Of a DNA stretch of 64,000 nucleotides, positions 16,141 to 36,868 are shown in pieces; positions within the stretch are counted from its first letter, which is position 1; each line of letters begins with the position of its first letter. Origin of the DNA: Candidatus Hadarchaeota archaeon. GTDB lineage: Archaea; Hadarchaeota; Hadarchaeia; Hadarchaeales; Hadarchaeaceae. The translations under genes were made by a program, and so were the position numbers. Location of the stretch: contig CAZETV010000001.1 in assembly GCA_964514965.1 (NCBI GenBank), forward strand, positions 30,756-94,755. The letters are read 5' to 3'. The notes beneath the pieces were generated by a model. The model was not told the DNA's origin. It did not search any database and was given only the letters and a program-made list of their open reading frames with translations.

Positions 16141-16231
16141 GGGCCCATAGCTCAGTTGGTAGAGCGCCGCCTTCGCATGCATTTGCCGGAAAAGGCGGAG
16201 GTCGCGGGTTCGAGTCCCGCTGGGTCCACCA
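16141..16231 (+). tRNA. tRNA-Ala (anticodon CGC) with 15-nt intron at 37/38 (16178..16192), CCA encoded
   Basis: Manual fold. Acceptor GGGCCCA/TGGGTCC, D-arm GCTC-AGTTGGTA-GAGC, anticodon stem CCGCC/GGCGG with loop TTCGCA|intron|A, T-arm GCGGG-TTCGAGT-CCCGC, discriminator A. Confidence 0.85.
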
Positions 16232-17049: not shown

Positions 17050-17142
17050 GGGCCCGTGGCGCAGATTGGTTAGCGCGTTCGGCTGATAGCCAGTTTGGCA
17101 GAAACCGGAAGGTCGAGGGTTCGAATCCCTCCGGGCCCACCA
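17050..17142 (+). tRNA. tRNA-Ile (anticodon GAU) with 15-nt intron at 37/38 (17089..17103), CCA encoded
   Basis: Manual fold. Acceptor GGGCCCG/CGGGCCC, D-arm GCGC-AGATTGGTTA-GCGC, anticodon stem TTCGG/CCGGA with loop CTGATA|intron|A, T-arm GAGGG-TTCGAAT-CCCTC. Confidence 0.85.
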
Positions 17143-21147: not shown

Positions 21148-21963
21148 TTAATATTCTGATGGGAGTTGTTTTAGTTTTTCATACGAAAAGACAGGTCCAT
21201 CTCGGCATACATAAACACTGCCTAAATTGCACCTTCCGCATTTGCCCAATCCGCACTTCATTTTCATCTCAAGCGTCATAAAAATTTGATCGGGTTTGAA
21301 TCCTAACTCCAAGAGGTTTTTCATGACAAAGTTTATCATGATTGGGGGACCGCAAGTCACGGCTATCGAATTTCCGGATGGAGGAGAAATTTTCAGCAAG
21401 TTGGCGGGTACGAAGCCTACAAATTCACCCCACCCATCCTCGGCCTTGTCGATTGATAAATGCACCTTTACTCCGTTATCCCTTAAGCCAAGGAGTTCTT
21501 TTTCTCGAATCAAATCTTTCCTACTCCTTGCTCCGTAAATTAACATCAATTCTCTGTACTTTCCTTTATTCATTGTATAGTAAAGCAGAGGTCTCAGTGG
21601 GGGTAAACCTATGCCGCCGCCGATTAGTATTAATTTTTTTCCTTCCCACTCTTTAACTGGAAAACCGTTCCCATACGGTCCTCTTACCCAAACGGTTTCT
21701 CCCACCTCGAGTCTGTGCAGCGCCGTTGTAACTTTGCCCATCTTTTTCACGCAGATTTCTATTTTACCTTCAGCTGGTGGCGAAAAAAGAGAGACCGGAA
21801 ACTCACCTTCCCCTAGCACTGATATTTCGAAGTACTGTCCCGGAACAAAATTTAGCTTCTCTTCTCTGTCTTTTAGCTCCAGCTCAAAGCTCTTTATGTC
21901 TGGCGTTTCTTGCCTGATTTGCTTGATTACTGCGGGTTTTGGAGAGTAAATATATTCAGTCAA
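21148..21963 (-). CDS. NAD(P)H-binding FAD/[2Fe-2S] oxidoreductase subunit (sulfhydrogenase gamma HydG/AsrB/PyrK/FlxA-like)
   Basis: FNR-like FAD and NAD(P) domains (RPYS-type region, GGGIGLPPLRPL) and a C-terminal Cys cluster CGLGKCGRCNLGSVYVC. The proposed start is a TTG that overlaps the upstream stop (TTGA), with GGTGGGG 5 nt upstream. The track ATG start at 22014 would overlap the upstream gene by 55 bp. Confidence 0.75.
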   Translation of the reverse strand: MTEYIYSPKPAVIKQIRQETPDIKSFELELKDREEKLNFVPGQYFEISVLGEGEFPVSLFSPPAEGKIEICVKKMGKVTTALHRLEVGETVWVRGPYGNGFPVKEWEGKKLILIGGGIGLPPLRPLLYYTMNKGKYRELMLIYGARSRKDLIREKELLGLRDNGVKVHLSIDKAEDGWGEFVGFVPANLLKISPPSGNSIAVTCGPPIMINFVMKNLLELGFKPDQIFMTLEMKMKCGLGKCGRCNLGSVYVCRDGPVFSYEKLKQLPSEY

Positions 21964-22961
21964 GATTTCCCCACCTTCGATAATATCTCGATTAAATTTA
22001 TCCCTGATGGACAATTATCTAAGCATCTCCCGCAGCCGACGCAGCCGATTTCATCGATGTTTTCCAACAGGTATTGGAACTTGTGGTAGACTCTGTTTCG
22101 AATCCTCTCTCGTCGGGTTGGTCTTGGGTTATGGCCGGAGGATTGCAAGGTGAAATAAGGGAACGTGCAAGAATCCCAAGTTCTCACCCTGAAGGTTTTG
22201 CCGTCCAAGAATTCGTCAGTCAAATCAAAGCAATGACAGGTGGGGCAAAAGTAAGCGCATACCCCACAGCCAATACATATTTTGGATACTTCGTCCCAGA
22301 TTTCGCTTTCGAAAGTGTGTTTTAATTTTGCGGTTACCTGCTTCACATCTAATTCTCGTGCAATCTTTTTTTCCGCGTTCTGCTGGGTGTTTTTCCTTAA
22401 CTCTATATCAGCTTTGGTTGGTTCTGAGAACAATTCTTTGCTACTCTCAACCAATTTTTCCCCGACCTTGCTCAACACTTCCACATAGTATTTCTCACCC
22501 ATATCTGTGAGCAGCATATCGAGCCCATCTGTAGAAAACGGACCCAAGCCGAGAGAGCTGCAAAAACAATTTTCCCCTGGGGATGTACAGGCCAGCCCGA
22601 TCATGGGGAGATTATTTTTCCTCTGTAAAAAGTAAGGGTCTTCACGATCTTTTTCGAAAACCTTGGTCAACACCTGTATGCTTTTCGCATCGCAGGGTCT
22701 AACTCCAAATATTACTCCCAAGTTCGAAACTTTTGGTGTATAGATCTCCTTTTTGCCCGCCATGAAAATCGTTTCCGTTTGAGGCATGAATAAAGACTTG
22801 ATTGGTTTCAGGGTGTTCGTGAACTCAAAAGTTATTTCTTTCGGATCATTTACAAGCTTAAACTCGATTTTGCCTTCCTCATCTTTAACAGGTGCATATA
22901 ACTTTTCAGTGCGCAGATTTCGCAGAAACTTTTGCAAATCTCTCTTCTTGATGACTTTCAT
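21960..22961 (-). CDS. 4Fe-4S subunit, sulfhydrogenase beta/AsrA/FlxB-like
   Basis: GVRPCDAKS N-domain motif plus two ferredoxin-type motifs (CIGCGVCAYFCPTCHC and CVGCGRCLDNCP). Start overlaps the upstream gene with ATGA. Confidence 0.75.
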   Translation of the reverse strand: MKVIKKRDLQKFLRNLRTEKLYAPVKDEEGKIEFKLVNDPKEITFEFTNTLKPIKSLFMPQTETIFMAGKKEIYTPKVSNLGVIFGVRPCDAKSIQVLTKVFEKDREDPYFLQRKNNLPMIGLACTSPGENCFCSSLGLGPFSTDGLDMLLTDMGEKYYVEVLSKVGEKLVESSKELFSEPTKADIELRKNTQQNAEKKIARELDVKQVTAKLKHTFESEIWDEVSKICIGCGVCAYFCPTCHCFDLTDEFLDGKTFRVRTWDSCTFPYFTLQSSGHNPRPTRRERIRNRVYHKFQYLLENIDEIGCVGCGRCLDNCPSGINLIEILSKVGKS

Positions 22962-23929
22962 CTTATGAACTCCTCAGGATCCTCTAGTTTAAAACTCGCG
23001 AGAAGAGGTTTCTGTTCTATATTTATGCCCGCCCTGTAGTCAAAAAGATTCTTCATGTCTTTTTCCATTTTTCTAAACAGCTTTGAGAGTGGTATCCCCT
23101 CCGGGCAGCTATGTTCGCACGCAACGCAGCCAACGCACCTCCCGGCCAAGTGGAATACTCTCATCAAATGGAAAAAGGCATTTTCGGACTCAACTACTGA
23201 TTTTTTAACCCATGTTGGCATCGTCTTGTCCGCGAGACATTCTTTGCAATAGCAGAGCGGACACACTTCCCTGCAGGCATAGCACCTAACACATTTACTT
23301 AGCTTTTCCTTCCAGTAATCCCATCTCTCCTCTAACTCCATTCTCTCTATCTCCTTCACGTCGTCGTAGTTCTCTTTGCCCCAGGGTTTCACTTCCTCGC
23401 CGAGCAGGATATCATAAATTACAGGGGTGGGATTTTGGCAGTGATTGCAACTGTCGAACACGAATTCTCTTCGATCGAGTTTGATGACTCCATTTTTTGT
23501 TTCGACTTTCACTGTTCCGTTTTCGATTAGAATTCCCGTGACTGAAGAGGACTGTACATTTCTTTTACCGAGCTCTTCACGCAGTTTTTCAAGGTCTACT
23601 ATACCCTGGCAAGGAATTCCTATCAGCACCACTTTCTCTCTGTCAACAATCCCTTCCTGTATCAACTTTGTCACTGCACGGCTATCGCAACCTTTGACCA
23701 CCAAGCCGATTTTTTCGCCTGCTTTGATTTCTTCTAAAGTTAAATAGACGGCCAAATTGTGAGCACATAGAGAGGAATAGTGTAGTTTGTTAACATCATC
23801 GGTCGATTTAGCAAAGAAGGGCCTCGCGTTCAAGGGTTCGACCATTTCGTATCCGATGATATATTTCACTTTTCCTTCGGTCAGTAGCCTGTTTGCCTCT
23901 TTTCGGAGATTTTCTACTAAGCTTACCAT
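22958..23929 (-). CDS. second HydB/AsrA-like 4Fe-4S subunit (FlxC-like paralog of 21960..22961)
   Basis: KGCDSRAV N-domain motif plus CVRCYACREVCPLCYC and CVGCVACEHSCP. It is paralogous to the adjacent gene and translationally coupled on both sides. Confidence 0.65.
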   Translation of the reverse strand: MVSLVENLRKEANRLLTEGKVKYIIGYEMVEPLNARPFFAKSTDDVNKLHYSSLCAHNLAVYLTLEEIKAGEKIGLVVKGCDSRAVTKLIQEGIVDREKVVLIGIPCQGIVDLEKLREELGKRNVQSSSVTGILIENGTVKVETKNGVIKLDRREFVFDSCNHCQNPTPVIYDILLGEEVKPWGKENYDDVKEIERMELEERWDYWKEKLSKCVRCYACREVCPLCYCKECLADKTMPTWVKKSVVESENAFFHLMRVFHLAGRCVGCVACEHSCPEGIPLSKLFRKMEKDMKNLFDYRAGINIEQKPLLASFKLEDPEEFIR

Positions 23930-24345
23930 TCTATCTTCCTCTTGATTTTTTTCATTGGGCCAAGCACTCGGATTTCTTCCACCATGTCTTCCACGATTTT
24001 AGCAAACTTCTGTCCTTCCGATGCAGAAACCCACGCGGCTTGGAGCCTTTTTGGATTTATCCCAATGTATTCCAAAAGATTTCTTAGGAGCTTCAGTCTT
24101 CTTCTATTGTAATAGTTTCCTTCCCGATAATGGCATTCCCCTGGGTGACAACCACCTATGAACACGCCGTCAGCTCCTTGCTGGAAACACCTCAACACCC
24201 ACAATGGATTCACCCTGCCCGAGCACATCACCCTGATGGTTCTCAAGTTAGGCGGGTAGGTCAATCTGCTAGTACCTGCCAAATCGGCTCCCGCATAAGC
24301 ACACCAATTGCATAAGAAGCCTACTATACGCGGTTCCCAACTCAA
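23923..24345 (-). CDS. mvhD: MvhD-type [2Fe-2S] electron-transfer subunit (FlxD/MvhD)
   Basis: 140 aa with the FLCNWCAYAGAD ... CSGRV ... GADGV(F/L)IGGCHPGECHY pattern typical of methyl-viologen-reducing hydrogenase delta subunit. Confidence 0.85.
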   Translation of the reverse strand: MSWEPRIVGFLCNWCAYAGADLAGTSRLTYPPNLRTIRVMCSGRVNPLWVLRCFQQGADGVFIGGCHPGECHYREGNYYNRRRLKLLRNLLEYIGINPKRLQAAWVSASEGQKFAKIVEDMVEEIRVLGPMKKIKRKIEW

Positions 24346-27300
24346 CTTTGCTCACCCAGTACATCGATTAAGGGCAATACTTGTTTGTCTTCAAAGTGTC
24401 GCTGTTGAATGGCTCCTGAAGGACAGGCTGCAGAGCATATGCCGCAACCTTTACATAACGCTTCATTTACCTTGGCTAATTTTGATATTGCCCCTTTCTT
24501 CTCCACCGTCTTGAGTTCTATTACATTTGTTGGACAAACCTCAGCACAGAAACCACAACCAGTGCACAAATTCTCATCGACCGAGGCCACAATTCCTTCG
24601 GCCATCACCTTACCTTTTGTTAACAAAGAGCAAACTTCAGCTGCGCTCGCTGATGCTTGTGATACTGTGTCGGGGATGTCTTTGGGCGATTGGGCGCATC
24701 CAGCAAGGAAGATCCCGTCGCTAAAGGTATCGACAGGTCTAAGCTTTGGATGGGCCTCGAGGAAGAAGCCATCCGAGCCTTGGTTAATGTTTAGGATTTT
24801 GGCTAGCTCGGAGGCACCATGGCTAGGAACAATCGCGCTAGCTAACACCACGAGGTCTACTTCTTCGGGCTCGTGAGGCTTTGCTTCCACAACGAGTTTG
24901 TCATTTTTTTTGCTGACCCTTATCTCGTCGTCCAGCTCCCTGCGCTTGTACTTCACTCCTTCGTCCTTGACCCGGTCGTAGAACTCCTCGTACCCTTTAC
25001 CAAAAGCCCTGACATCTGTGTAGTATACAGTCACTTCAGCATCCGGAATTTTTTCCTTAATGAGGTGAGCATGCTTGGCCGTGTACATGCAGCATACGCG
25101 CGAGCAATATGAGTTCGTCTCTTTTTTCCTGCTTCCAACACAGGAGATGAATGCTACTCGCTTCGGCTCCTTACCGTTTATTTCAATTTTTCCGTTGGTC
25201 GGGCCGGAAGCCGAACTAAGCCTCTCGAACTCAAGCCCAGTTATCACCTCTGGATATTTCCCGTAACCATACTCGGGGAGCTTGGAAGGATCGAATTGAT
25301 CGAAGCCCGTGGTTACGACTATAGCGCCAACATCGAGTTCGATTGATTCCTCTTTTTGATTATGAACAATGGCTTTGGCCTCGCATGCTTTTTCACATTC
25401 AAGACACTCAGAACACCCGCCGCACTGCAAACATCGTTTTGCTTCTTTTATCGCTTCTTCTTCGGTATAACCTAACTCGACTTCTCGAAAGTTGTTTTTC
25501 CTCTCTTCGATCGGCAGGTATCTCATCGGCACTTTTCGTTCATTTTTAACATCTTCTACTGATACCTCAGCGATTTTTGGTTTTATCCCGCGACCGTCTT
25601 TCAGGTCTTTCTCGTTGATGTATCTGTCAATGGAAATTGCAGCTTCTTTTCCGGCAGCAATTGCTTCTATAACAGTCCCAGCACCTAACACGGCATCGCC
25701 GCCGCAAAAAACGGCTTCTATATTGGTTGCTAACGATATAGGGTCAATTTTGACAGTTCCCCAAGGGGTACATTCTAAATTAATATCCTTGGTTAAGAAG
25801 CTCAAATCCACTTCCTGTCCGATAGCTAATATCAGGCTATCCGCTTCCATCATAAACTCAGAGCCAGGGATGGGTCTAACTTTTCTTCTACCAGTTTCAT
25901 CAGGCTCTGTCAATTCCATCTTGATGCATTCAATTGCTTTGATATGCTCGTTTTCACCTATAATTTTTGTTGGTGTGGTAAGATAGACTAGTTTCACGCC
26001 TTCATGCTCTGTTTCGTCAATTTCCCATTCTGGTTCTGCAGGCATTTCTACACGAGACCTGCGATACATTATGATAACTTCCTTAGCACCTAATCTCAAA
26101 GCAGAACGTGCTGTGTCTAATGCTGCATTGCCTCCACCAACGACAATTATCTTATCGCCTAGTTTAGGAGTCTTACCTAAATTCAGCTCTTTCAAGAATT
26201 CGGTAGCTTGGAATACACCTCCAAGTTTTTCGCCAAGTATATCCATTTTTCTACCTTTCTGAGCCCCCACAGCTAAAAAAATCGCTTTATAACCACTGTC
26301 GAATAGGTTCTTTATAGTCAAATTTTTGCCTATCGCCGAGTTCAGATGCACTTTAACTCCTAGCGCGAGAATGTCAGATATCTCTCTTTCAAGAATTTCT
26401 CTCGGCAGTCGAAAAGTAGGAACACCAAATCGCATCATGCCGCCAAGCACGGGCGCACTTTCATATATTGTTACAGGGTATCCTTTCATAGCAAGGTCAT
26501 GAGCAGCAGTTAAGCCAGCAGGCCCTCCTCCGACTATAGCCACAGTTTCTGTTCTCTTTTTTATAGGGGAGGATTCTGTAGTAGGGCTCTTGAGCTCTAA
26601 ATCTCCGACAAAACGTTTAATATGTGCTATGCTTACTGGCTCATCTATATCTTTTCTTGTGCATGCTTTTTCGCAAGGCCTGTGACAGACCCTGCCGCAT
26701 ATAGATGGAAACGGAAGTTTCTCTTTTATAACTTGGAGTGCCTCGTAGAATTTACCGCGACTGGTGAGCATTACGTAACCAGGTGCGCCAACACCTGCAG
26801 GGCACGCGTCTTTGCATGGTTGTAATCCCCGTTTATCGATAGTATATTTGGGCGGAACCGCTTGTGGGAATGGAATGTAAATTGATTTTCTGCTGCTGAG
26901 CCCAAAGTCAAACTCGTTTGGCAGTTTCACAGAGCATACTTCGGTGCATTCTCCACATCCAGTACACTTTTCCGGGTCCACGTATCTAGGCTTTTTCCTT
27001 ACTTTTAACTTAAAGTTACCTACATAACCCTCGATGTTTTCAATTTCTGAATAAGTCAGGAGTTCTATATTTGGATGCCATTTTACGTCTACCATCTTGG
27101 GGGTGAGAATGCACGCAGAGCAATCCAGAGTTGGGAAAGTCTTGTCGAGTTGGGCCATCCTCCCTCCGATGGATGGTGAGCGCTCCACGAGGTATACTTT
27201 GAAACCCCTGTCCGCGATGTCGAGGGCAGCTTGCATCCCGGCTATGCCCCCGCCTATTACGGCGGCCTGAGGTATGACGGAAATTTCGTTTCTTTCCAAG

Positions 27301-27689
27301 CTTTCGAGTTCTACAGCTCTGTTTACACCTGCCAAGACGAGTTCCAGCGCTTTTTTCGTAGCTTCTTCTTTTTCTTCATGAACCCAAGAGCATTGCTCTC
27401 TTATATTCACCATCTCGAAGCAGTAAGGATTCAGCCCCGCTTCTTCGACAGCGCTGCGAAAAGTAGGCTCATGCATCCTGGGCGAACAAGATGCTACTAC
27501 TATTCTGTCTAACTTCTCCCTGCGGATATCATCTTTGATTAATTGCTGGCCGGGTTCTGAGCACATGTATTCGTAGTGTTTGGAGACCTTCACTCTTGGA
27601 TGCTTTCCTATGGTATCCGCGACTTTTTCGACATCCACTGTCTTCGCAATGTTGGTTCCGCAATGACAGATATAGACGCCGATTTTCAT
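24342..27689 (-). CDS. hdrA: HdrA-like flavoprotein with embedded GltD/NfnB-like NAD(P)H oxidoreductase module (HdrL-type giant HdrA), 1115 aa
   Basis: N-terminal HdrA domain (GVYICHCGTNIA, VIGGGIAGMQAAL), then about 430 aa with GltD-type 2x[4Fe-4S] (CKDACPAG ... CGRVCHRPCEKAC) and two Rossmann motifs (VAIVGGGPAGLTAAHDL; IIVVGGGNAALDTARSA), then the rest of HdrA including the inserted and C-terminal ferredoxin domains. One continuous ORF, 4-bp overlaps on both sides. Confidence 0.8.
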   Translation of the reverse strand: MKIGVYICHCGTNIAKTVDVEKVADTIGKHPRVKVSKHYEYMCSEPGQQLIKDDIRREKLDRIVVASCSPRMHEPTFRSAVEEAGLNPYCFEMVNIREQCSWVHEEKEEATKKALELVLAGVNRAVELESLERNEISVIPQAAVIGGGIAGMQAALDIADRGFKVYLVERSPSIGGRMAQLDKTFPTLDCSACILTPKMVDVKWHPNIELLTYSEIENIEGYVGNFKLKVRKKPRYVDPEKCTGCGECTEVCSVKLPNEFDFGLSSRKSIYIPFPQAVPPKYTIDKRGLQPCKDACPAGVGAPGYVMLTSRGKFYEALQVIKEKLPFPSICGRVCHRPCEKACTRKDIDEPVSIAHIKRFVGDLELKSPTTESSPIKKRTETVAIVGGGPAGLTAAHDLAMKGYPVTIYESAPVLGGMMRFGVPTFRLPREILEREISDILALGVKVHLNSAIGKNLTIKNLFDSGYKAIFLAVGAQKGRKMDILGEKLGGVFQATEFLKELNLGKTPKLGDKIIVVGGGNAALDTARSALRLGAKEVIIMYRRSRVEMPAEPEWEIDETEHEGVKLVYLTTPTKIIGENEHIKAIECIKMELTEPDETGRRKVRPIPGSEFMMEADSLILAIGQEVDLSFLTKDINLECTPWGTVKIDPISLATNIEAVFCGGDAVLGAGTVIEAIAAGKEAAISIDRYINEKDLKDGRGIKPKIAEVSVEDVKNERKVPMRYLPIEERKNNFREVELGYTEEEAIKEAKRCLQCGGCSECLECEKACEAKAIVHNQKEESIELDVGAIVVTTGFDQFDPSKLPEYGYGKYPEVITGLEFERLSSASGPTNGKIEINGKEPKRVAFISCVGSRKKETNSYCSRVCCMYTAKHAHLIKEKIPDAEVTVYYTDVRAFGKGYEEFYDRVKDEGVKYKRRELDDEIRVSKKNDKLVVEAKPHEPEEVDLVVLASAIVPSHGASELAKILNINQGSDGFFLEAHPKLRPVDTFSDGIFLAGCAQSPKDIPDTVSQASASAAEVCSLLTKGKVMAEGIVASVDENLCTGCGFCAEVCPTNVIELKTVEKKGAISKLAKVNEALCKGCGICSAACPSGAIQQRHFEDKQVLPLIDVLGEQS
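24877..25274. repeat. 398-bp tract 100% identical to 28197..28594 (within the two hdrA paralogs); similarity extends over about 24650..25290
   Basis: Base-by-base comparison at a constant offset of 3320 bp. Identity is perfect across 24877..25274 and about 85-90% identity in the flanks. Confidence 0.9.
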
Positions 27690-29644
27690 GATATCAGACC
27701 TGCCAATTGAGCGAAGAGTTGAACGTCCGTGTAATGTTTCATAGAGATAGCCTTAGACGGACAAGCGGCTACACAAACCCCGCAACCCTTGCAAAGCACT
27801 TCGTTGAGTTTTACTGAGCGTTTTTCGCTGTTATATTCAAAGGCATTAAACTCACAAAGGTGTTCACACACTCTGCAACCGCTACATAGATCCTCATCCA
27901 CAATTGCTACTATCGGCTCTATCGCGACTTTTCCAGCTGCCAGGGGTATAGATGCTTTAGCACCTGCACCGCTTGCTTGTGCTACTGTGTCGGGGATGTC
28001 TTTGGGCGATTGGGCGCAGCCGGCAAGGAAGATCCCGTCGCTAAAGGTATCGACAGGCCTAAGCTTTGGGTGGGCCTCGAGGAAGAAGCCATCCGAACCG
28101 CGGGTAATGTTCAAAATTCTGGCGAGTTCTAAGACTCCGGAGTTTGGAACTATTGCATTCGCCAGCACAACGAGGTCTACTTCTTCGGGCTCGTGGGGCT
28201 TTGCTTCCACAACGAGTTTGTCATTTTTTTTGCTGACCCTTATCTCGTCGTCCAGCTCCCTGCGCTTGTACTTCACTCCTTCGTCCTTGACCCGGTCGTA
28301 GAACTCCTCGTACCCTTTACCAAAAGCCCTGACATCTGTGTAGTATACAGTCACTTCAGCATCCGGAATTTTTTCCTTAATGAGGTGAGCATGCTTGGCC
28401 GTGTACATGCAGCATACGCGCGAGCAATATGAGTTCGTCTCTTTTTTCCTGCTTCCAACACAGGAGATGAATGCTACTCGCTTCGGCTCCTTACCGTTTA
28501 TTTCAATTTTTCCGTTGGTCGGGCCGGAAGCCGAACTAAGCCTCTCGAACTCAAGCCCAGTTATCACCTCTGGATATTTCCCGTAACCATACTCAGGCAA
28601 CTGAGATGGATCAAACAAGTCAAAGCCTGTGGCGACCACTATCGAGCCTACTTCAAGTTCAATCGAATTTTCTTGTTGTTCAAAATCGATAGCGTTGCGG
28701 GAACACGCAGCTTTGCAAGCGGGGCTTTTCCCACATACCCCTCTCGTAAGGTATAGGCAATGCTTAGGGTCTATCAAGTATTTCATAGGCACGGCCTGCG
28801 GAAATGGTATGTATGCTGCTCCTCTCTTCCCTAAACCCAAATCGAATTCATTTGGAAGCTTCCCATTCAGTAAGCAAGCTTTGGCGCATTCTCCGCAACC
28901 GATGCACTTTTCCTCATCGACATACCTCGGTTTTTTCTTAACCTTTACCTTGAAATTTCCGATGTAGCCTTCAATTCGTTCGACCTCCGAATAACTCAAG
29001 AGTTCTATATTTGGCTGTCTGTTCACGTCCACCATCTTGGGGGTTAAAATGCACGCAGAACAATCTAAGGTTGGAAAGGTTTTGTCGAGTTGAGCCATTT
29101 TTCCTCCGATGGATGGTGAGCGCTCCACGAGGTACGTGTATATTCCATTTTCTGCTATCTCCAACGCCGCTTGAATCCCGGCAATTCCTCCTCCAATCAC
29201 CAAAGCTTTCGGTATTACATCTACTTCTCTCCTCTCTAGCGGCTGAAGTTCGGTAGCTCGTGCCACAGCGCCTGCAATCAATTTCTTGGCCTTTTCAGTG
29301 GCTCTTTCTTTATCTTCATGAACCCAAGAGCACTGTTCTCTTATATTTGCCATCTCGAAGCAGTAGGGGTTGAGGTTCTTGTGTTCTACGACCTTTCTAA
29401 AAGTGGGTTCGTGCATTCTTGGAGAACAGCTCGCCACGACTACACGATCAAGTCCGGCTTCGTCTATATCCTTCTTGATTAATTCTTGTCCTGGGTCAGA
29501 GCACATGTACTTATAGTCCCTAGCAATCACCACGTTTGGCAAAGACTTGGCATATTTCACCACTTCTTCAACATCAACGGTAGCCGCTATATTTAAGCCG
29601 CAATGGCAAATGTACACGCCCGTTTTCACTTCCTTATCCCCCAT
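27686..29644 (-). CDS. hdrA: heterodisulfide reductase subunit A (canonical length, 652 aa)
   Basis: N-terminal GVYICHCGLNIA and FAD-binding VIGGGIAGIQAALEIAENG, the HdrA four-Cys insertion, C-terminal ferredoxin motifs CSGCRVCEHLC and CKGCGVCVAACP. No in-frame TGA. Confidence 0.9.
   Translation of the reverse strand: MGDKEVKTGVYICHCGLNIAATVDVEEVVKYAKSLPNVVIARDYKYMCSDPGQELIKKDIDEAGLDRVVVASCSPRMHEPTFRKVVEHKNLNPYCFEMANIREQCSWVHEDKERATEKAKKLIAGAVARATELQPLERREVDVIPKALVIGGGIAGIQAALEIAENGIYTYLVERSPSIGGKMAQLDKTFPTLDCSACILTPKMVDVNRQPNIELLSYSEVERIEGYIGNFKVKVKKKPRYVDEEKCIGCGECAKACLLNGKLPNEFDLGLGKRGAAYIPFPQAVPMKYLIDPKHCLYLTRGVCGKSPACKAACSRNAIDFEQQENSIELEVGSIVVATGFDLFDPSQLPEYGYGKYPEVITGLEFERLSSASGPTNGKIEINGKEPKRVAFISCVGSRKKETNSYCSRVCCMYTAKHAHLIKEKIPDAEVTVYYTDVRAFGKGYEEFYDRVKDEGVKYKRRELDDEIRVSKKNDKLVVEAKPHEPEEVDLVVLANAIVPNSGVLELARILNITRGSDGFFLEAHPKLRPVDTFSDGIFLAGCAQSPKDIPDTVAQASGAGAKASIPLAAGKVAIEPIVAIVDEDLCSGCRVCEHLCEFNAFEYNSEKRSVKLNEVLCKGCGVCVAACPSKAISMKHYTDVQLFAQLAGLIS
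28197..28594. repeat. 398-bp tract 100% identical to 24877..25274
   Basis: See partner feature. Confidence 0.9.
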
Positions 29645-29742
29645 GAAATCACGCCAGCAGTGAATTTGGCCTAGGTTTAATCTTTTTATCTATTACCATC
29701 ATGGTTTAAAAGTCGTCCTGACTAAAAGGTTGAGGTGGCCGG

Positions 29743-30735
29743 TTGAGAAAAATGAAGAGTGAAGAACCAAAAAAGTTGAAATTTGCTTTCTACTGGGCTG
29801 GCAGTTGTGGGGGCTGTGAGATTGCTGTTCTAGATATAAACGAGAAGATTCTGGATGTGGTTGCCATTGCTGAGGTAATCTTTTGGCCTGTCGCCATGGA
29901 TATCAAGTATAAAGACGTAGACGCGATGCCGGACAAGAGCATAGACGTCTGTTTCTTTAATGGTTCGGTCAGGACAGAGGAGCAAGAACACATGGCCAAA
30001 CTTCTGAGGCGGAAGTCAAAGTTTTTGATAGCATTTGGCACCTGTGCTCAGCTAGGTGGCATTCCAGGTCTTGCGAACATTTCGAATAAAAAAGAGATTT
30101 TCGAGAAGGTATACGTTCAAACTCCATCGACAAAAAATTCTAAAGCTGCGATACCTAAAACTGCTGTTAAAGTCGAATGCGGGGAACTAACTCTGCCAGA
30201 GTTTTATGATACTGTGAAGACACTAGATCAAACCGTGGAAGTGGACTACTATATCCCAGGTTGTCCTCCGCACCCAAACTTGATATTGAAAGCCGTGGAA
30301 GCCATAGCCAAAAATGAGTTACCCGCTAAAGGTTCGGTATTGGCCCCCGAGAAGTCGGTTTGCGATGAATGTCAGAGGGAAAAGAAAGAAAAGGTTATCT
30401 CCAGATTATACAGGATGCACGAAATCAAACCAGATCCGGAGAAATGTTTTTTGGAGCAGGGGGTGGTGTGCATTGGGCCCGCAACCCGTGGTGGATGCGA
30501 GGCGCGGTGTATCAATGCGAATATGCCTTGTACGGGGTGCGGTGGTCCATGCCCCAATGAAATCGAGCAAGGGGCGTCCATGATAAGTGCCATTTCTTCG
30601 ATTCTCGGGTTGGATGAGGAAAAAGGAGAAACATATGACGCTGAAAAATTAATCAACCAAATAAAAGACCCCTTGGGGACTTTTTACCGGTACTCCCTGC
30701 CAGCTGCTCTCATCCGAAGGAGGGTTCAGAAATGA
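29743..30735 (+). CDS. mvhG: [NiFe] hydrogenase small subunit, F420-non-reducing type (MvhG)
   Basis: N-terminal YWAGSCGGCEIAVLD, proximal and distal cluster Cys (CxxC ... GCPP ... CTGCGGPCP), approximately 330 aa. Confidence 0.85.
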   Translation: MRKMKSEEPKKLKFAFYWAGSCGGCEIAVLDINEKILDVVAIAEVIFWPVAMDIKYKDVDAMPDKSIDVCFFNGSVRTEEQEHMAKLLRRKSKFLIAFGTCAQLGGIPGLANISNKKEIFEKVYVQTPSTKNSKAAIPKTAVKVECGELTLPEFYDTVKTLDQTVEVDYYIPGCPPHPNLILKAVEAIAKNELPAKGSVLAPEKSVCDECQREKKEKVISRLYRMHEIKPDPEKCFLEQGVVCIGPATRGGCEARCINANMPCTGCGGPCPNEIEQGASMISAISSILGLDEEKGETYDAEKLINQIKDPLGTFYRYSLPAALIRRRVQK

Positions 30736-32219
30736 GCGAATTTAAGGAGATAAGCATAGAGCCCGTCACGAGGCTTGAGGGTCACGCAAAGATAGTGATA
30801 TTTCAAGATGAGAAAGGGGAAGTGAAAAACGCCTATTTACAACTCCCTGAACTCAGGGGCTTTGAGAGATTCTGTGAGGGGAGAAAAGCTGAAGACCTCC
30901 CACAGCTGCTCTCGAGAATTTGCGGAGTATGTCCCGTTGCCCATCATCTCGCTTCCACGAAAGCTTTGGATGCGGCGTTTCGTGTGGACCCCCCTTCAGC
31001 TGCGAAAAAACTTCGGGAACTCATGTACAGCGGCTATTTCATGTACGATCACATTCTTAATTTTTATTTCCTAGCTGCGCCGGACTTCGTCGTGGGGCCT
31101 GATGCTCCACCTCAAGAAAGAAACATTTTCGGCGTGATCAAGAAGGTCGGCTTAGACGTGGCCAAGGAAGTAATCAAGCATCGGGCTTACGGCCAAAAAA
31201 TTACCGAGATAATAGGTGGAAAGGCAACCCATCCGGTTTGTGGACTTCCGGGTGGCATATCCAAGCCGCTGACGGAAGAAGAAAGAAAGGAAATAGAAAA
31301 GATGGCGGAGGCCGGGCTTGAATTCGCCAAGTTCAGCTTGAAGTTATTTGACGATGTTGTATTGAAAAATAAGAAATACGTTGACCTGATTATGAGCGAC
31401 GCTTACACTTTAAAAACATATTACATGGGTCTAGTGGACCGAAACAACAAGGTCAATTTTTACGATGGCAAAATACGTGTGGTTAATCCCGGGGGTCAAG
31501 AGTTCGTGAAGTTTAACCCATCCGAATACTTGGACATCATCGAGGAGCATGTTGAGGAATGGAGCTATGTAAAACTACCTTATCTCAAAAAAATCGGATG
31601 GAAAGGCTTGAGGGATGGACATAGCAGCGGGATTTACAGAGTTGGTGCATTGGCCAGACTAAATGCCGCAGATGGCATGGCGACTCCCCTAGCCCAGCAA
31701 GAGTACGAGAGGATGTATGAAACCCTAGGCGGGAAGCCCGTGCACTCAACTCTCGCGTTTCACTGGGCTAGACTGATAGAAATAATTTATGCGGCCGAAA
31801 GATGCCTAGAGCTCAGTCGAGATGAAGAGATAACGAGCAAGGAAATTCGAAACGAGCCAAATACCCCGGGAGAAGGAATCGGAATAGTCGAAGCTGCGAG
31901 AGGTACATTGATCCATCATTACAATCTTAACAAAGAGGGCCTAACCGAAAAAGTAAATTTGATAGTCCCTACGACCAACAACAATCCATCCATCTGCATG
32001 TCCGTGAGGGATGCAGCGAAGGGGCTCATCCATGGTAAAGAAGTTAGCGAGGGGTTGCTGAACATGGTGGAGATGGCTTTGAGAGCTTATGACCCATGTA
32101 TCGCATGCGCTTCCCACTGCCACATAGGCGATTTGCCCCTTGAAATAAAAATACACGATAATAATCGGAGTTTGATAAAAACCGTTGTGAGAGAACCTCT
32201 TGGCTTTAAACACTTTTAG
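30732..32219 (+). CDS. mvhA: [NiFe] hydrogenase large subunit (MvhA)
   Basis: N-terminal RLEGHAKIVI and RICGVCPVAHH (RxCGxCxxxH) with C-terminal DPCIACASHCH Ni-binding motif followed by a cleavable tail. Overlaps mvhG by 4 bp. Confidence 0.9.
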   Translation: MSEFKEISIEPVTRLEGHAKIVIFQDEKGEVKNAYLQLPELRGFERFCEGRKAEDLPQLLSRICGVCPVAHHLASTKALDAAFRVDPPSAAKKLRELMYSGYFMYDHILNFYFLAAPDFVVGPDAPPQERNIFGVIKKVGLDVAKEVIKHRAYGQKITEIIGGKATHPVCGLPGGISKPLTEEERKEIEKMAEAGLEFAKFSLKLFDDVVLKNKKYVDLIMSDAYTLKTYYMGLVDRNNKVNFYDGKIRVVNPGGQEFVKFNPSEYLDIIEEHVEEWSYVKLPYLKKIGWKGLRDGHSSGIYRVGALARLNAADGMATPLAQQEYERMYETLGGKPVHSTLAFHWARLIEIIYAAERCLELSRDEEITSKEIRNEPNTPGEGIGIVEAARGTLIHHYNLNKEGLTEKVNLIVPTTNNNPSICMSVRDAAKGLIHGKEVSEGLLNMVEMALRAYDPCIACASHCHIGDLPLEIKIHDNNRSLIKTVVREPLGFKHF

Positions 32220-32272
32220 AGATATCTTTTCGTGTCGCATAAGTTAGCAAACTATCGCAACGGGTAAGTCAA

Positions 32273-32770
32273 ATGGAAAAATGTGCGATTCAAAATAATT
32301 TCAACGAGAAGCTCAAGAAGTGGCTTCTAGATGCCCGAAGGGTTGTTATCGCAGGTATTGGAAGCTCGATTCGAAAAGATGATTTCATAGGGGTCGGGGT
32401 CGTAGAAAAACTACGGGGGAAAGTTTCACGATCGGTTCATTTAATAGTGTGTGGAATGTCTCCTGAGAATTTTTTAGAACCGATTATTCACTTTAAGCCA
32501 ACCCACGTACTATTTGTCAACGCGGCTCAACTAGGCTTAAAACCTGGTTCTTCAAGGTTGATTGAACTAAATCAGATTTCGTGGCCAGCGGTATTGACTC
32601 ATGCTCTAACTCATCAGATATTTCGAGAATTTCTAACAGAGGCAACTGGTGCTAAGGTCGCTCTGCTCGCCGTGCAACCAAAGGACACGAGTTTTGGAGA
32701 AGGTTTTACAAAAGAATTGGAAGAAACTGTCGAGCGTTTATCAAGTTTTTTGTTGAGGGTTTTACCCTGA
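32273..32770 (+). CDS. hydrogenase maturation endopeptidase (HycI/FrhD-like)
   Basis: 165 aa with GIGSSIRKDDFIGVGVVEKL and a downstream His, typical of hydrogenase maturation proteases. Sits directly after mvhA. Confidence 0.75.
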   Translation: MEKCAIQNNFNEKLKKWLLDARRVVIAGIGSSIRKDDFIGVGVVEKLRGKVSRSVHLIVCGMSPENFLEPIIHFKPTHVLFVNAAQLGLKPGSSRLIELNQISWPAVLTHALTHQIFREFLTEATGAKVALLAVQPKDTSFGEGFTKELEETVERLSSFLLRVLP

Positions 32771-32807
32771 AATGGATAATGTACGATACTTTTGAACTTT
32801 AGGTTGC

Positions 32808-33269
32808 TTAACTACCCGAAACTAGTGGCTTTGGAATTTGGGCCGATACTTTACAAGGCCCCAACTTTGTAATTTCATTAACAACTTCCGTAACAATTTT
32901 AACAAATCGTTCGGCTTCTCCAGCTGATACTGTCTCGAACCTGAGCCGCTCCGGTTCTATCCCCAACTGCACTAGTATTCGTTTGAGCAGTTCAACTCTT
33001 CGCTGAGCTTTGTAGTTTCCAGAGACGAAATGACAGTCTCCGAAGTGGCATCCAGCGACCAAAACCCCGTCCGCACCTCGTTTAAAAGTTTCTAGAATGT
33101 AAACAGGGTCTAGCCGCCCAGTGCACATCAGCCTGATGATGCGGACGTTGGGCGGATAATGCATGCGGCTCGTTCCAGCGAGGTCAGCCGCAGCGTAGGA
33201 GCAGAAATTGCAAAGAAAGACGATGATTTTTGGTTCAAATTCAACCATGTTATCTACCTTTAATATCAC
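32808..33269 (-). CDS. mvhD: second MvhD-type subunit
   Basis: FLCNFCSYAAADLAGTSR ... CTGRLDP ... GADGVLVAGCHFGDCHF. It sits 43 bp downstream of sufBD on the same strand. Confidence 0.85.
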   Translation of the reverse strand: MILKVDNMVEFEPKIIVFLCNFCSYAAADLAGTSRMHYPPNVRIIRLMCTGRLDPVYILETFKRGADGVLVAGCHFGDCHFVSGNYKAQRRVELLKRILVQLGIEPERLRFETVSAGEAERFVKIVTEVVNEITKLGPCKVSAQIPKPLVSGS

Positions 33270-33312
33270 TAGTGTACTTAAAAATTTTAATTCTTATATT
33301 TTTCACCCCACC

Positions 33313-34533
33313 TTACAAGGCTTCACCGAGAGTTACATCGACCATCCGCTTGATATCCCTTTTCAAGGCGTCTGGAAGTCCAAAAATGTCAATATCCATG
33401 AATCCCCGAATAATCAGTGATTCTGCATCAGACTCCGAAAAACCCCTCGCAGTCAAGTATTGGACTTGCTCTTCCGCTATCTTCCCTACGGCGGCTTCAT
33501 GCGAAAGTTCGGTCCCCTTCACTTTCCCCGCCAGCTCTGGAATTGCGTGTATAAATGCTTCGTCAGAGAGCAAGAGACCCCTGCATTCTAGGTGCGCCTT
33601 ACTGTCTCGGTGCTCTCCAACCAAGAGTCCACGGGCATTTATCTGCGCATTGTCCGAGGCTATCGCCCGCGCGATGACTTCTCCTTTGCTCCCTTTGCCT
33701 TGAAGAACCGCTTTCGAGCCTACATCCAAATAGGAGTTCTGCCTCCCGTGTAGAATTGTGTTGAACCTGACCCTAGAGTTAGACCCCTTACAGTAAGCAA
33801 CTGGGTACATTTGAATACTTTTCACCGGTTTCATGCACAGGTAATTGTTAATAAACGTTGCATCGTCGTCTAAGAGGGCCGCAGTTCGAGGTCGGACGTC
33901 AAAATTTTGGGCCCAGTTATGAATCATGGTGAAAGTGAGCTTCGCGTTTTTCTTCACATAAAATTCGGAGATGCCCACATGCAGACCACTTTGAACGTTT
34001 GGGTGGGTCGTGCAGCCAGTTATTATTTGGGCCTCAGAGTGGGGTTCTGCGATTATCAAGTTATGAACGTTTTGGTTAAAATTGTCTTTTGAGATGAAAA
34101 TGCATGCTTGTAGAGGGAGCGTGATTTTTTGCCCCTCAAGTATTCGGATGAAATAGCCCTGATCCCACTTTAACTTGGCCAAAGTGGTGAATTTGTCGGT
34201 GCTTGGGTCAACAATTTTCCACCAATACTCCTTGGCCCAGCGGTATTTTTTGAGTGCTTCTTTAGTGCTCATTATTTCGGCTTTTCCCCTGAAAGTTTTT
34301 TGGATTGCTTGAAGAACCGCAGAATGATCTATTTGAAAATATGTGCCTGCTCGTTCCTTTTCCCTGGTAATGCCAACGCTTAGGGCTCTTTGGGTGATAT
34401 TTTCTGGTAGCGTCGAAATAGTACATGAGGGCCAAGGTGAAGTTTCTCTTTTGAAAGTTTCTACATCTAAGTCGGGCCCAAAAGCCGCTGGTTTTCTGAT
34501 TGTACTCAACGTAGTCTTTTTACCTTTGGGCAT
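33313..34533 (-). CDS. sufB: Fe-S cluster assembly scaffold SufB/SufD-family protein
   Basis: 406 aa SufBD beta-helix family. Overlaps sufC upstream. Confidence 0.8.
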   Translation of the reverse strand: MPKGKKTTLSTIRKPAAFGPDLDVETFKRETSPWPSCTISTLPENITQRALSVGITREKERAGTYFQIDHSAVLQAIQKTFRGKAEIMSTKEALKKYRWAKEYWWKIVDPSTDKFTTLAKLKWDQGYFIRILEGQKITLPLQACIFISKDNFNQNVHNLIIAEPHSEAQIITGCTTHPNVQSGLHVGISEFYVKKNAKLTFTMIHNWAQNFDVRPRTAALLDDDATFINNYLCMKPVKSIQMYPVAYCKGSNSRVRFNTILHGRQNSYLDVGSKAVLQGKGSKGEVIARAIASDNAQINARGLLVGEHRDSKAHLECRGLLLSDEAFIHAIPELAGKVKGTELSHEAAVGKIAEEQVQYLTARGFSESDAESLIIRGFMDIDIFGLPDALKRDIKRMVDVTLGEAL

Positions 34534-35231
34534 CGCTCACACCACTTGTATCCTCTTTTCATGACCCGGTTGATAATATTGGTCGGTTTTCCAGAGCAGG
34601 CAATCATTCCATAAAACATCACATGGGCTTTGTCCACTTTTAAGTAGCGCAGGATGTGGCCGAGATGGGTTATCAAAAGGCCAGATCGCTTTTTGAGGAG
34701 CTCGTTGATCGCCTTGCCTATAACCTCTAGATTCTCAACATCTACTCCTGAGTCAGGCTCGTCGAATATCGCAAAATCTGGTCGTTGTGCGAGCAATTGC
34801 AAAATCTCCGTCCGCTTGAGCTCACCTCCGGAGAAGCCCAAATTCAAATCTCTGCCGAAAAAATCCATAGGAATGTTTGTGGTGCCTGCTAGCTTTACTT
34901 CATCGACTTTTCCCTTGGTGAGGTATCGCAAAACATCACCCAGTTTGACACCTCTTATCTGTGGGGGGGTTTGAAAGGCCACTCCAATGCCTAGCTTCAC
35001 GCGCTCATCCGTTGACATGGTGGTGATGTCGGTGCCGTTGAATCGAATCTTGCCCGATAGAACGCGGCAGTTCGGGAAGCCCAAAATTGACGTTATCAGC
35101 GAGGTCTTTCCTGATCCGTTGGGGCCGAGCAAGACGTGGGTCTCCCCCTTGGGTATCTCTAGGTTAACCCCTTCGAGCACCCGTTTTCCCGCGATTTCTA
35201 CAGTTAGATTCTCTATCTTTAGCATCTTCAA
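34506..35231 (-). CDS. sufC: Fe-S cluster assembly ATPase SufC
   Basis: ABC ATPase with Walker A GPNGSGKTS, signature LNLGFSGGELKR, and Walker B FAIFDEPDSG. Confidence 0.9.
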   Translation of the reverse strand: MKMLKIENLTVEIAGKRVLEGVNLEIPKGETHVLLGPNGSGKTSLITSILGFPNCRVLSGKIRFNGTDITTMSTDERVKLGIGVAFQTPPQIRGVKLGDVLRYLTKGKVDEVKLAGTTNIPMDFFGRDLNLGFSGGELKRTEILQLLAQRPDFAIFDEPDSGVDVENLEVIGKAINELLKKRSGLLITHLGHILRYLKVDKAHVMFYGMIACSGKPTNIINRVMKRGYKWCERCPKVKRLR

Positions 35232-35321
35232 GTTTTCAACCCCATTTTAATACTCTTCGGGACGACCTAAAAGTTTCCCAACAAGGCACATTTATTAATC
35301 TTCATGATTTAAGGTGCAGTT

Positions 35322-35813
35322 ATGGACGACTTTACATTTGGATTGCTCTATGGCGTTGTAGCAATGGCCCTTGTGGGGGTCTTGTTATTCTTGTTAGGCC
35401 GAAAACTCGATCGACGGCTTTACCTGCGACCAGTACTTTATGGCTTTTTTTTCTGGGCGGGCGTCAACGTACTTTTTGTAGGAGGAATCTTCAGCTTTTT
35501 GGTAGGTGGTGCGGTTACTGGATACTTTCTCGCTCGGGAGGTTGGAGAATGGGGGAATCAATTTCGAGCGGGTGGGTTGAGCGGTACTTTAATCATTTGC
35601 AGCCTTCTCCTCGCGAACATTTTGATCCTATTCACACGAGGCGTCTCTGATATCTCAGTTAGTCCGGTTAGTCATGAGGAAGTATTATTTCTGCTGTATG
35701 GGGACATGTTAATCTATGCTTTTATGTTGTTGGCCATTGCCGGAATTGGCGCTGTGCTGGGTGGTCTGCTGCGCAAGCTCTTAAAACCTGCTGGGCAGGA
35801 ACCCCAACAATAG
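35322..35813 (+). CDS. polytopic membrane protein, hypothetical
   Basis: 163 aa with 4-5 hydrophobic helices. No family recognized. Confidence 0.4.
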   Translation: MDDFTFGLLYGVVAMALVGVLLFLLGRKLDRRLYLRPVLYGFFFWAGVNVLFVGGIFSFLVGGAVTGYFLAREVGEWGNQFRAGGLSGTLIICSLLLANILILFTRGVSDISVSPVSHEEVLFLLYGDMLIYAFMLLAIAGIGAVLGGLLRKLLKPAGQEPQQ

Positions 35814-36026
35814 CGTTTTGTTTGTAAAGAACTCCACCCGAAAACTCGGTGGGTGAATAGGGGTAGCATCAAAATAAATTGGATATACCAATAAGCTCGG
35901 CTTGAATAAGGTACTTAGTTTGAATGTTTGTTGGTGATAGGTTCTTTTGTATTGATACAAAATTTCGGCAATGCGCTTAATTTTAGAAACACAAATCATT
36001 TATCCCGAAAAATCAGACGAATTTAC

Positions 36027-36240
36027 GGTAGTGGGGTAGCTACCTGCAGCGGGGTAGAGCAGCAGTAGGCGAACTACTCTGCCCCTACGGCAGCATGGAG
36101 TGCCCGCCGGTCGTGGAAAACCACGGGCGAAGCTCATAAGGCGTCAAGCCGTGGGTTTGGCGCTCCTGCGAGACCCGGAGGTCAGTGGTTCAAGAGAGAG
36201 TGGCGTAAAACCTCTCTCGGGATTTCCACTCCCCGCTACC
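36027..36240 (+). ncRNA. candidate structured RNA (about 214 nt) in a 466-bp intergenic region; class unresolved (SRP RNA-like end pairing?). Strand uncertain.
   Basis: A GC-rich island inside AT-rich intergenic DNA. 5' GGTAGTGGGG can pair with 3' CCCCGCTACC to close a terminal helix. Internal hairpins GAGAGAG-N11-CTCTCTC (36193..36219) and CGTGG-AAAA-CCACG. No ORF is present. Confidence 0.35.
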
Positions 36241-36280
36241 TTATCTAGTCTGATTGTCTAAGTGAGTTAAGAGGCTAATT

Positions 36281-36868
36281 ATGTCTATTATCGGTTTGGT
36301 TGCGCTTACTCTGCTCTTGGGCCCATTTGGCGCTATACCGTTCGCGTTTGCTCAAGGAATGTCGACTTTTGATACTGCAATCACTGTAAGCATTATCCAC
36401 GCGACTCTCGTGCCAGTATGGTTGGGTTTTTTTGAATTTATTGGGTATAGCATGCGTTACAAAAATCGTATTATCTCCCGTGTTATGAGGTACGCAACGA
36501 CTAAATCTAAAAGGTTCAGGGTAGATATTGACAGTTACATACGAAAATTTGAGCGCCGGACGGGACAGTTCGGTTTTGCTCTCGGTGTGGTTGGATTCAC
36601 ATTTTTGGTTGGCGTCTCTTGGGCGGCTCTCTGTGCTTACATACTAAACATAAAGAAGAAGACGATCCTCGCATCCATCGCTGTCGGTGCAGTGATTTCA
36701 AGCGTTTTCTGGACCTTTGTGTTTGCTGGAATTGTGGGGGCCCTTCCTAGCCCATTGACACTTTACCTAATATTGATTGTTGCGACGTTCGCTTTCCTCG
36801 TATACAAGAAAGTTCGCGAGCGTAAACTATTACGGAAAATTTTTCATCCAGTCTTAAAAGATCGTTGA
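36281..36868 (+). CDS. small multidrug-export-like membrane protein (PF06695-like)
   Basis: 195 aa with four hydrophobic helices and a central basic loop. Resembles the 'putative small multi-drug export' family. Weak call. Confidence 0.4.
   Translation: MSIIGLVALTLLLGPFGAIPFAFAQGMSTFDTAITVSIIHATLVPVWLGFFEFIGYSMRYKNRIISRVMRYATTKSKRFRVDIDSYIRKFERRTGQFGFALGVVGFTFLVGVSWAALCAYILNIKKKTILASIAVGAVISSVFWTFVFAGIVGALPSPLTLYLILIVATFAFLVYKKVRERKLLRKIFHPVLKDR

Follow-up and report, generated by a model that had tools for sequence, protein, structure and literature searches.

In a 64,000-nucleotide stretch of DNA from a Candidatus Hadarchaeota archaeon (contig CAZETV010000001.1, hereafter the window), two tandem paralogs of hdrA, the gene for a flavoprotein subunit in electron-bifurcating complexes of the heterodisulfide reductase type, a short one (hdrA-short, S) and a long one (hdrA-long, L), share a tract of 398 base pairs (bp) without a single difference. 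This tract is very probably the footprint of recent non-reciprocal homologous recombination, i.e., gene conversion, between the two co-transcribed genes. Such an event had been proposed in the initial annotation of the DNA, and the proposal is supported by identity at synonymous sites, by the site patterns in a syntenic relative, by the divergence between species, and by recurrence and trees. Judged from related loci, the event in the window appears not to be isolated and would be the latest of repeated conversions confined to the core of the protein that binds flavin adenine dinucleotide (FAD). The further claim that this segment is being homogenised in both HdrA proteins is likewise borne out, and can be widened to recurrent conversion that is restricted to the FAD core and acts over a patchy zone. 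The two genes and the part that distinguishes them are the following.

27686..29644, minus strand: hdrA-short (S), a canonical HdrA of 652 amino acids (aa), from Pfam and NCBIfam HdrA-type matches that lie below the equivalog cut-offs
24342..27689, minus strand: hdrA-long (L), an HdrA of 1115 aa with an NfnB/GltD-like insertion, from the S/L protein alignment and family matches
25380..26819, minus strand: the NfnB/GltD-like insertion of L (L aa ~291-770), a gap in the S/L protein alignment, without counterpart in S

Both genes are intact and co-oriented on the minus strand, the ATG of L overlapping the stop codon of S (ATGA). Full-length homology to structurally characterised HdrA, a protein with an N-terminal domain, a domain resembling thioredoxin reductase and two ferredoxin domains, places both in this family: S aligns end to end (residues 4-649) with the solved methanogen HdrA chains 8rvu and 5odc (E ~1e-237), and L has the same frame split by the insertion, within which it matches Pfam Fer4_20 and Pyr_redox_2 (aa 290-680) and NCBIfam PRK12771 (aa 285-790). 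The equivalog level, that of coenzyme B-coenzyme M (CoB-CoM) heterodisulfide reductase subunit A, is not reached, the best NCBIfam match, HdrA2, giving 876 and 869 bits against a cut-off of 1100 bits. In the whole window there is no hdrA copy besides these two.

The homogenised zone is made up of several parts, and a smaller segment of the same kind lies closer to the N-terminus.

24877..25274, minus strand: exact tract, L copy (L aa 806-938), a maximal exact run of 398 bp
28197..28594, minus strand: exact tract, S copy (S aa ~351-483), identical to 24877..25274 at an offset of 3320
24850..24876, minus strand: extension of the recent tract (partner 28170..28196), with a sole mismatch at 24876
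24780..24849, minus strand: paralog-specific island (partner 28100..28169), 62.9% identical, SAIVPSHGASELAKILNINQ in L and NAIVPNSGVLELARILNITR in S
24654..24779, minus strand: older or partly decayed conversion tract (partner 27974..28099), 120 of 126 positions identical (95.2%, 6 mismatches)
27090..27197, minus strand: minor second homogenised segment (partner 29030..29137, offset 1940; L aa 165-200), 84% identical in the window

The base-for-base identity announced for the two copies at a constant offset holds over its whole length and cannot be extended as an exact run; including the extension, 424 of the 425 positions in 24850..25274 are identical. The proteins, for which a common stretch ending in VDLVVLA had been noted, are identical over 148 aa (LPEYGYGK...VDLVVLA), 132 codons of which lie inside the exact tract. 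For the flank at 24650..24876, an identity of 85-90% had been given; the measured value is close to it (84.1%, 191/227), although the flank is heterogeneous and not uniform, falling into three stretches, namely the extension, the island and the older tract. The island, 23 residues long (L aa 948-970), thus lies inside the homogenised zone, and only three paralog-diagnostic sites are found in 24654..24779. The outer edges of the zone are sharp, with 46% identity below 24654 and, on the other side, 68% over 25275..25340 followed by 47% beyond 25340. DNA identity is 48-66% outside the tract and 48-63% outside the homogenised zone, where third codon positions are saturated, in agreement with the divergence claimed for the remainder of the genes. 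Apart from a further hdrA match, the window contains no additional repeat that reaches 60 bp and 85% identity; this match is a 60-bp stretch (27366..27425 versus 29306..29365; the NPYCFEM.NIREQCSWVHE region) that is 92% identical. Because paralog-diagnostic sites common with the syntenic relative described below remain in it, unlike in the main tract, this stretch probably reflects protein conservation and not conversion.

Chance does not account for the exact tract. S and L differ at 543 of 1935 aligned positions, and over 10,000 shuffles of these differences the longest stretch of identity had a mean length of 20 bp and reached 49 bp at most, against the 398 bp observed. This permutation follows the Sawyer/GENECONV criterion. 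With third codon positions alone, the identical run is 132 positions long and the maximum among the shuffles 21. At codons for the same amino acid, 1.4% of third positions differ inside the tract versus 64%, i.e., saturation, outside. Selection at the protein level cannot explain the identity, since synonymous sites are identical as well inside the tract.

The comparison with an orthologous locus, named in advance as a check, rests on a metagenome contig of 15 kb (L080), found through a protein (P0001) that is 92% identical to L. This contig is collinear with 21966..36868 of the window at 89.8% DNA identity and carries both hdrA genes in the same order. In a codon alignment of the four genes (wL and wS from the window, rL and rS from the relative), sites were counted as by paralog where wL=rL differs from wS=rS, and as by genome where wL=wS differs from rL=rS.

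Outside both homogenised segments (L aa 1-163, 208-805 and 1013-1115): 367 sites by paralog, 3 by genome
Main tract (L aa 806-947): 0 sites by paralog, 25 by genome
Island (L aa 948-970): 13 sites by paralog, 1 by genome

The ratio of by-paralog to by-genome sites thus passes from 367:3 outside to 0:25 in the tract. The longest stretches devoid of any paralog-diagnostic site are 429 nucleotides (nt) in the tract and 105 nt in the minor segment, all others being at most 48 nt. Because the 13 paralog-diagnostic sites of the island are common to both genomes, the island has escaped conversion and stayed paralog-specific in the lineages of the window and of L080 alike. The copies of L080 are themselves homogenised, with 82% identity across 718 bp; their stretches without mismatch measure 44 and 70 bp in the main segment, and in the minor segment 48 and 44 bp. 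The main tract has 53 further sites that set just one of the two L080 copies apart, and these are clustered (12 runs versus 27 expected; none of 20,000 shuffles as low). Since such sites fall in blocks, the region is best described as a mosaic of several events. The direction of conversion, from S to L or from L to S, is not readable, the tract being a mosaic of S-like and L-like blocks relative to L080, whose copies have also been converted.

Between the window and L080, orthologues are 87% identical inside the tract versus 88-94% outside, and their third positions diverge by ~30% in the tract versus 12-19% outside. A raised divergence of orthologues in the tract is expected if the two lineages resolved old paralog differences in opposite directions. 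The event in the window postdates the split from L080, and the absence of any difference in 398 bp places the last event well after it. Among the loci compared, the window holds the youngest event (0 differences in 398 bp, 1 in 425 bp).

Beyond this pair of genomes, an S-then-L tandem recurs in L161, L162/L163, L167 and L164; in L165 and L166, L is found alone. In L162/L163, the copies are 83% identical over 759 bp, and S aa 511-540 reach 99% with 97% of third positions identical. In L167, the main segment is 78-83% identical by region, with at most 90% in 20-codon windows, and S aa 181-200, in the minor segment, are 100% identical (60 nt). The signal is partial in L161 (S aa 516-557 at 92%) and the raised identity over the segment is weak in L005. 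The signal is clear in the window, L080 and L162/L163, with raised identity in L167, which amounts to fewer than five well-sampled species. Taken together, the alignments indicate that paralog-diagnostic differences were erased independently in several lineages within L aa 806-1013 (S aa 351-557). A self-comparison of 80 hdrA loci, most of them with a single hdrA, gave no other tract of comparable length and identity.

Trees (neighbour-joining, 300 bootstraps) were compared between the segment (S aa 351-492 and 516-557), the N-terminal region and the C-terminal domain. In the segment tree, both window copies, both L080 copies and the L copy of L161 form one clade with a bootstrap of 100, and a clade of L copies only receives 0. 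In the trees of both termini, the L copies of the window, L080 and L161 on the one hand, and the S copies of the window and L080 on the other, are grouped with a bootstrap of 100 each, and a clade by lineage receives 0-4. For the tract, then, copies of the same genome cluster together, and for the flanks copies of the same paralog type. In the C-terminal domain, the L copies of seven lineages are 55-82% identical in aa to one another versus ~40-45% to their own S partner; therefore the S/L duplication is old, and it precedes the split of the window, L080 and L161. For the minor segment (S aa 165-214), a protein-level tree has too few differences to show concerted evolution, and the evidence there is at the nucleotide level only.

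Some of the long genes in other loci have features of their own. The long HdrA genes without short partner (L165 5001..8315 and L166 5001..8324) are placed by the trees of both termini with the short-type copies of L162 and L167 and not with the other long copies; the insertion may be carried by either of the two backbones, or S and L may have recombined to give these genes. In L005 (213..5138) and L007 (9973..14901), the long hdrA appears as two separate open reading frames (ORFs), an N-terminal and a C-terminal piece with a gap between, which could be due to frameshifts, to in-frame stop or selenocysteine codons, or to assembly errors.

Closer relatives were not retrieved by the other searches. 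Among the matches listed in a scan of genome contigs with the long HdrA, there were only distant relatives (50-66% aa identity), none of the same species or genus. A scan of metagenome contigs with the paralog-specific C-terminus returned, among the matches listed, nothing above 59% and mostly generic ferredoxin-type patterns, and it also missed the known relative L080. A protein search with the tract region alone gave, among the matches listed, proteins of at most 422 aa and at most 79% identity.

The homogenised segments also stand out by their composition. In both window copies, the main segment has a G+C content at third codon positions (GC3) of 0.585, versus 0.41 for the remainder of L and 0.46 for the remainder of S, and in L080 (7522..12809) it has 0.71-0.72 versus 0.40-0.48 elsewhere in the genes. 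For the window, L080 and L005, the excess of the segment is +0.14, +0.26 and +0.17, respectively, versus +0.02 +/- 0.05 in 66 other hdrA genes; in the L162 segment there is no excess of GC3. Silent-site G+C is also raised over the minor segment (27090..27197 and 29030..29137). The raised G+C could result from GC-biased gene conversion or from a foreign origin of the segment.

With regard to other explanations, one would be an artefact of assembly or polishing, in which the tracts really differ somewhat, or one copy is a spurious duplication, and were collapsed or homogenised by the software. The proteins of the window are present in neither protein collection, hence no independent assembly of the strain is at hand for comparison; moreover, 398 bp is shorter than a typical insert, and one graph node could be threaded twice. 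Such an artefact is nevertheless improbable: both genes are intact and in frame, each has an orthologue in the same order in L080 (89.8% over 15 kb), and intact syntenic orthologues are also found in L161, L162 and L167. Identity decays in a natural way, with one mismatch, then the island, then the 95% stretch, and independent assemblies of other samples are homogenised over the same segment to varying degree. Merging by an assembler needs very high prior similarity, which itself implies conversion, and at most the figure of 100% may be slightly overstated. Purifying selection on the nucleotide sequence, both copies containing a functional element (DNA or RNA) or an antisense gene that overlaps them, deserves the least credence of all. 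Antisense ORFs do overlap both copies (24409..24876 and 27789..28301), and the lack of any Rfam match there at the gathering threshold is compatible with an undescribed element. The two ORFs are, however, differently placed relative to the tract, and a constrained element would be conserved between species, whereas the similarity of the window and L080 is lower within the tract than outside it, and ~30% of their third positions differ there. A functional element at the nucleotide level was rejected on account of this higher divergence.

A third source, be it an hdrA paralog at another place in the genome or foreign DNA richer in G+C, might also have overwritten both copies. The raised GC3 of the segment in the window and in L080 and the doubled divergence of orthologues in the tract would fit such a donor, and passages on HdrA in related archaea report many hdrA homologues (Chadwick et al., 2022, PLoS Biol, PMC9012536). 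A donor within the window is ruled out, no third copy being present in its 64 kb. The doubled divergence is accounted for without a donor by the resolution of old paralog differences in opposite directions, and in the segment tree a clade of their own (bootstrap 100) unites the copies of the window, L080 and L161, so that the donor would need to belong to the same lineage. Even then, the final step that made the copies identical is a conversion, and a third source appears quite unlikely, somewhat more so than an artefact. Gene conversion between S and L is thus preferred, though several points weigh against it. L080 is the sole close relative found, and neither the direction nor the number of events in the window lineage can be resolved from it. 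The assembler may have merged near-identical paths, and the true identity may be ~98-99% instead of 100%. A third hdrA located elsewhere in the genome, outside the window, could have acted as donor. The tandem or multiple hdrA copies of L164, L007 and L008 show no clear tract, i.e., the process is not universal. Finally, a deeper split between the L copies as a whole and the S copies as a whole has moderate support at the protein level, with a bootstrap of 55 in the C-terminal tree and no resolution in the N-terminal one.

The molecular steps that can be proposed for conversion between S and L are those generally known for homologous recombination. With the direct repeats misaligned, within one chromosome copy or between sister copies, a strand of one repeat would invade the other, and mismatch correction or synthesis-dependent repair would then copy one paralog onto the other. 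A strongly conserved protein would keep local DNA identity high and so seed further exchange, making the process self-feeding. Selection would remove the conversions that reach into specialised modules, leaving sharp edges and the island.

Aligned to the solved HdrA, the converted segments seem to correspond to the two halves of a FAD-binding domain resembling thioredoxin reductase. The borders of this domain in HdrA follow the published structure and the description of the domains in PMC9012536. The minor segment covers the FAD-binding motif and the LDCSAC cysteines, among which Cys197 probably has its counterpart, and the CVGSR...YCSRVCCMY motif of the main segment probably binds the iron-sulfur cluster of that domain. 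Homogeneity of the flavin core may itself be selected, e.g., for a symmetric core in an S/L heterodimer or for a shared partner, or may merely be tolerated. It can tentatively be hypothesized, with rather low confidence, that S and L form a heterodimer in which the bifurcating FAD core is kept identical by selection through long-term recurrent conversion and the raised G+C stems from GC-biased conversion. The modules for electron input and output would be free to specialise in such a heterodimer, namely the N-terminal domain, the ferredoxin/NfnB insertion, as well as the ferredoxin domain at the C-terminus. If this is true, S and L would constitute a domain-resolved case of the rare long-lasting concerted evolution, and a genetic marker of the parts of HdrA that are required to stay symmetric.

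Gene conversion between prokaryotic paralogs is well established, and the process is known as such, though not previously reported for hdrA; a full-text literature search gave no paper treating hdrA together with gene conversion. Bacterial tufA/tufB and archaeal chaperonin subunit paralogs undergo RecA/RadA-dependent non-reciprocal exchange, with near-identity over hundreds of bases as a result. Unlike S and L, these paralogs share one architecture and are for the most part homogenised from end to end. Of the described cases, the nearest is that of mtrA-1 and mtrA-2 in the mtr operons of methanogens, whose shared domain is homogenised by recurrent gene conversion and whose paralog-specific module is kept (2015, G3, PMC4632066). 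In both instances, two paralogs of one archaeal operon for energy metabolism go back to an ancient duplication and differ in domain architecture, and a shared catalytic domain is recurrently homogenised next to a distinct paralog-specific module. In contrast to mtrA, hdrA represents another gene family and enzyme, has its homogenisation limited to the FAD-binding core, which is less than the whole shared region and encloses an island, and is known in this state from a few uncultured archaeal lineages. Long-lasting recurrent concerted evolution in prokaryotes has been described for 26 genes, mostly of stable complexes (Wang and Chen, 2018, Commun Biol, PMC6053082), in a survey whose main text contains neither 'hdr' nor 'heterodisulfide'. 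As in these cases, the hdrA paralogs encode members of stable complexes and are alike at synonymous and non-synonymous sites through ongoing conversion; however, the survey required at least five species and the hdrA signal is clear in three or four lineages.

Tandem and fused HdrA paralogs are also described in anaerobic methanotrophic (ANME) archaea, where HdrA9-11 of ANME-1 have an NfnB-like insertion (PMC9012536). As in L, this insertion of ~480 aa interrupts an inserted ferredoxin domain, and the tandem copies of ANME are proposed to act as heterodimers. The passages in question deal with domain content and concern no gene conversion. Their argument for heterodimers is the complementary loss of Cys197 or of the N-terminal domain, whereas S and L both keep these two features.

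These observations have several implications. Few energy-metabolism genes show recurrent concerted evolution restricted to a domain, and hdrA can be added to them. Since the history of the FAD-core segment is that of the genome instead of the paralog, full-length HdrA phylogenies will be misleading where tandem copies occur, which matters as HdrA paralogs are classified and compared on the similarity of their sequences when electron flow is deduced for uncultured archaea, as passages of PMC9012536 illustrate. The map of converted and protected parts can be regarded as a natural experiment, in which the flavin core is interchangeable and the termini, the insertion and the 23-residue island are functionally diverged. 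A direct repeat of 398 bp at a distance of 3.3 kb also exposes the locus to deletion or duplication, and short reads can resolve it only with difficulty.

Regarding the genes around the hdrA pair, the one directly downstream belongs to the same operon.

23923..24345, minus strand: mvhD/FlpD gene (Pfam FlpD, E 1.7e-56), in an order kept in L080 and L161

It is followed by an FrhB-like gene, a Fer4_22 gene and an FNR-like gene (FAD, nicotinamide adenine dinucleotide (NAD) and 2Fe-2S). Upstream of the pair, the genes for the small and large subunits of a [NiFe] hydrogenase are divergently oriented. Among the window proteins scanned with Pfam and NCBIfam, neither hdrB nor hdrC was found, and no gene with a CCG domain adjoins the pair in its flanking regions (21148..24345 and 29743..32770). 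The syntenic gene of L080 at the hydrogenase side encodes a HycI-like protease, and the order is conserved in L080 and L161. In its layout, the locus resembles an Flx-type NAD(P)H-linked module more closely than a classical HdrABC-MvhADG cluster. Elsewhere, the window carries archaeal housekeeping genes, among them those for a PorA of archaeal type and an SRP54 of eukaryote type. Two tRNA genes (16141..16231 and 17050..17142) are long, with 91-93 bases according to ARAGORN and 88-90 according to Rfam, and the first of them is assigned a four-base anticodon, tcgc, by ARAGORN; the length of both is probably due to introns, which are common in archaeal tRNA genes.

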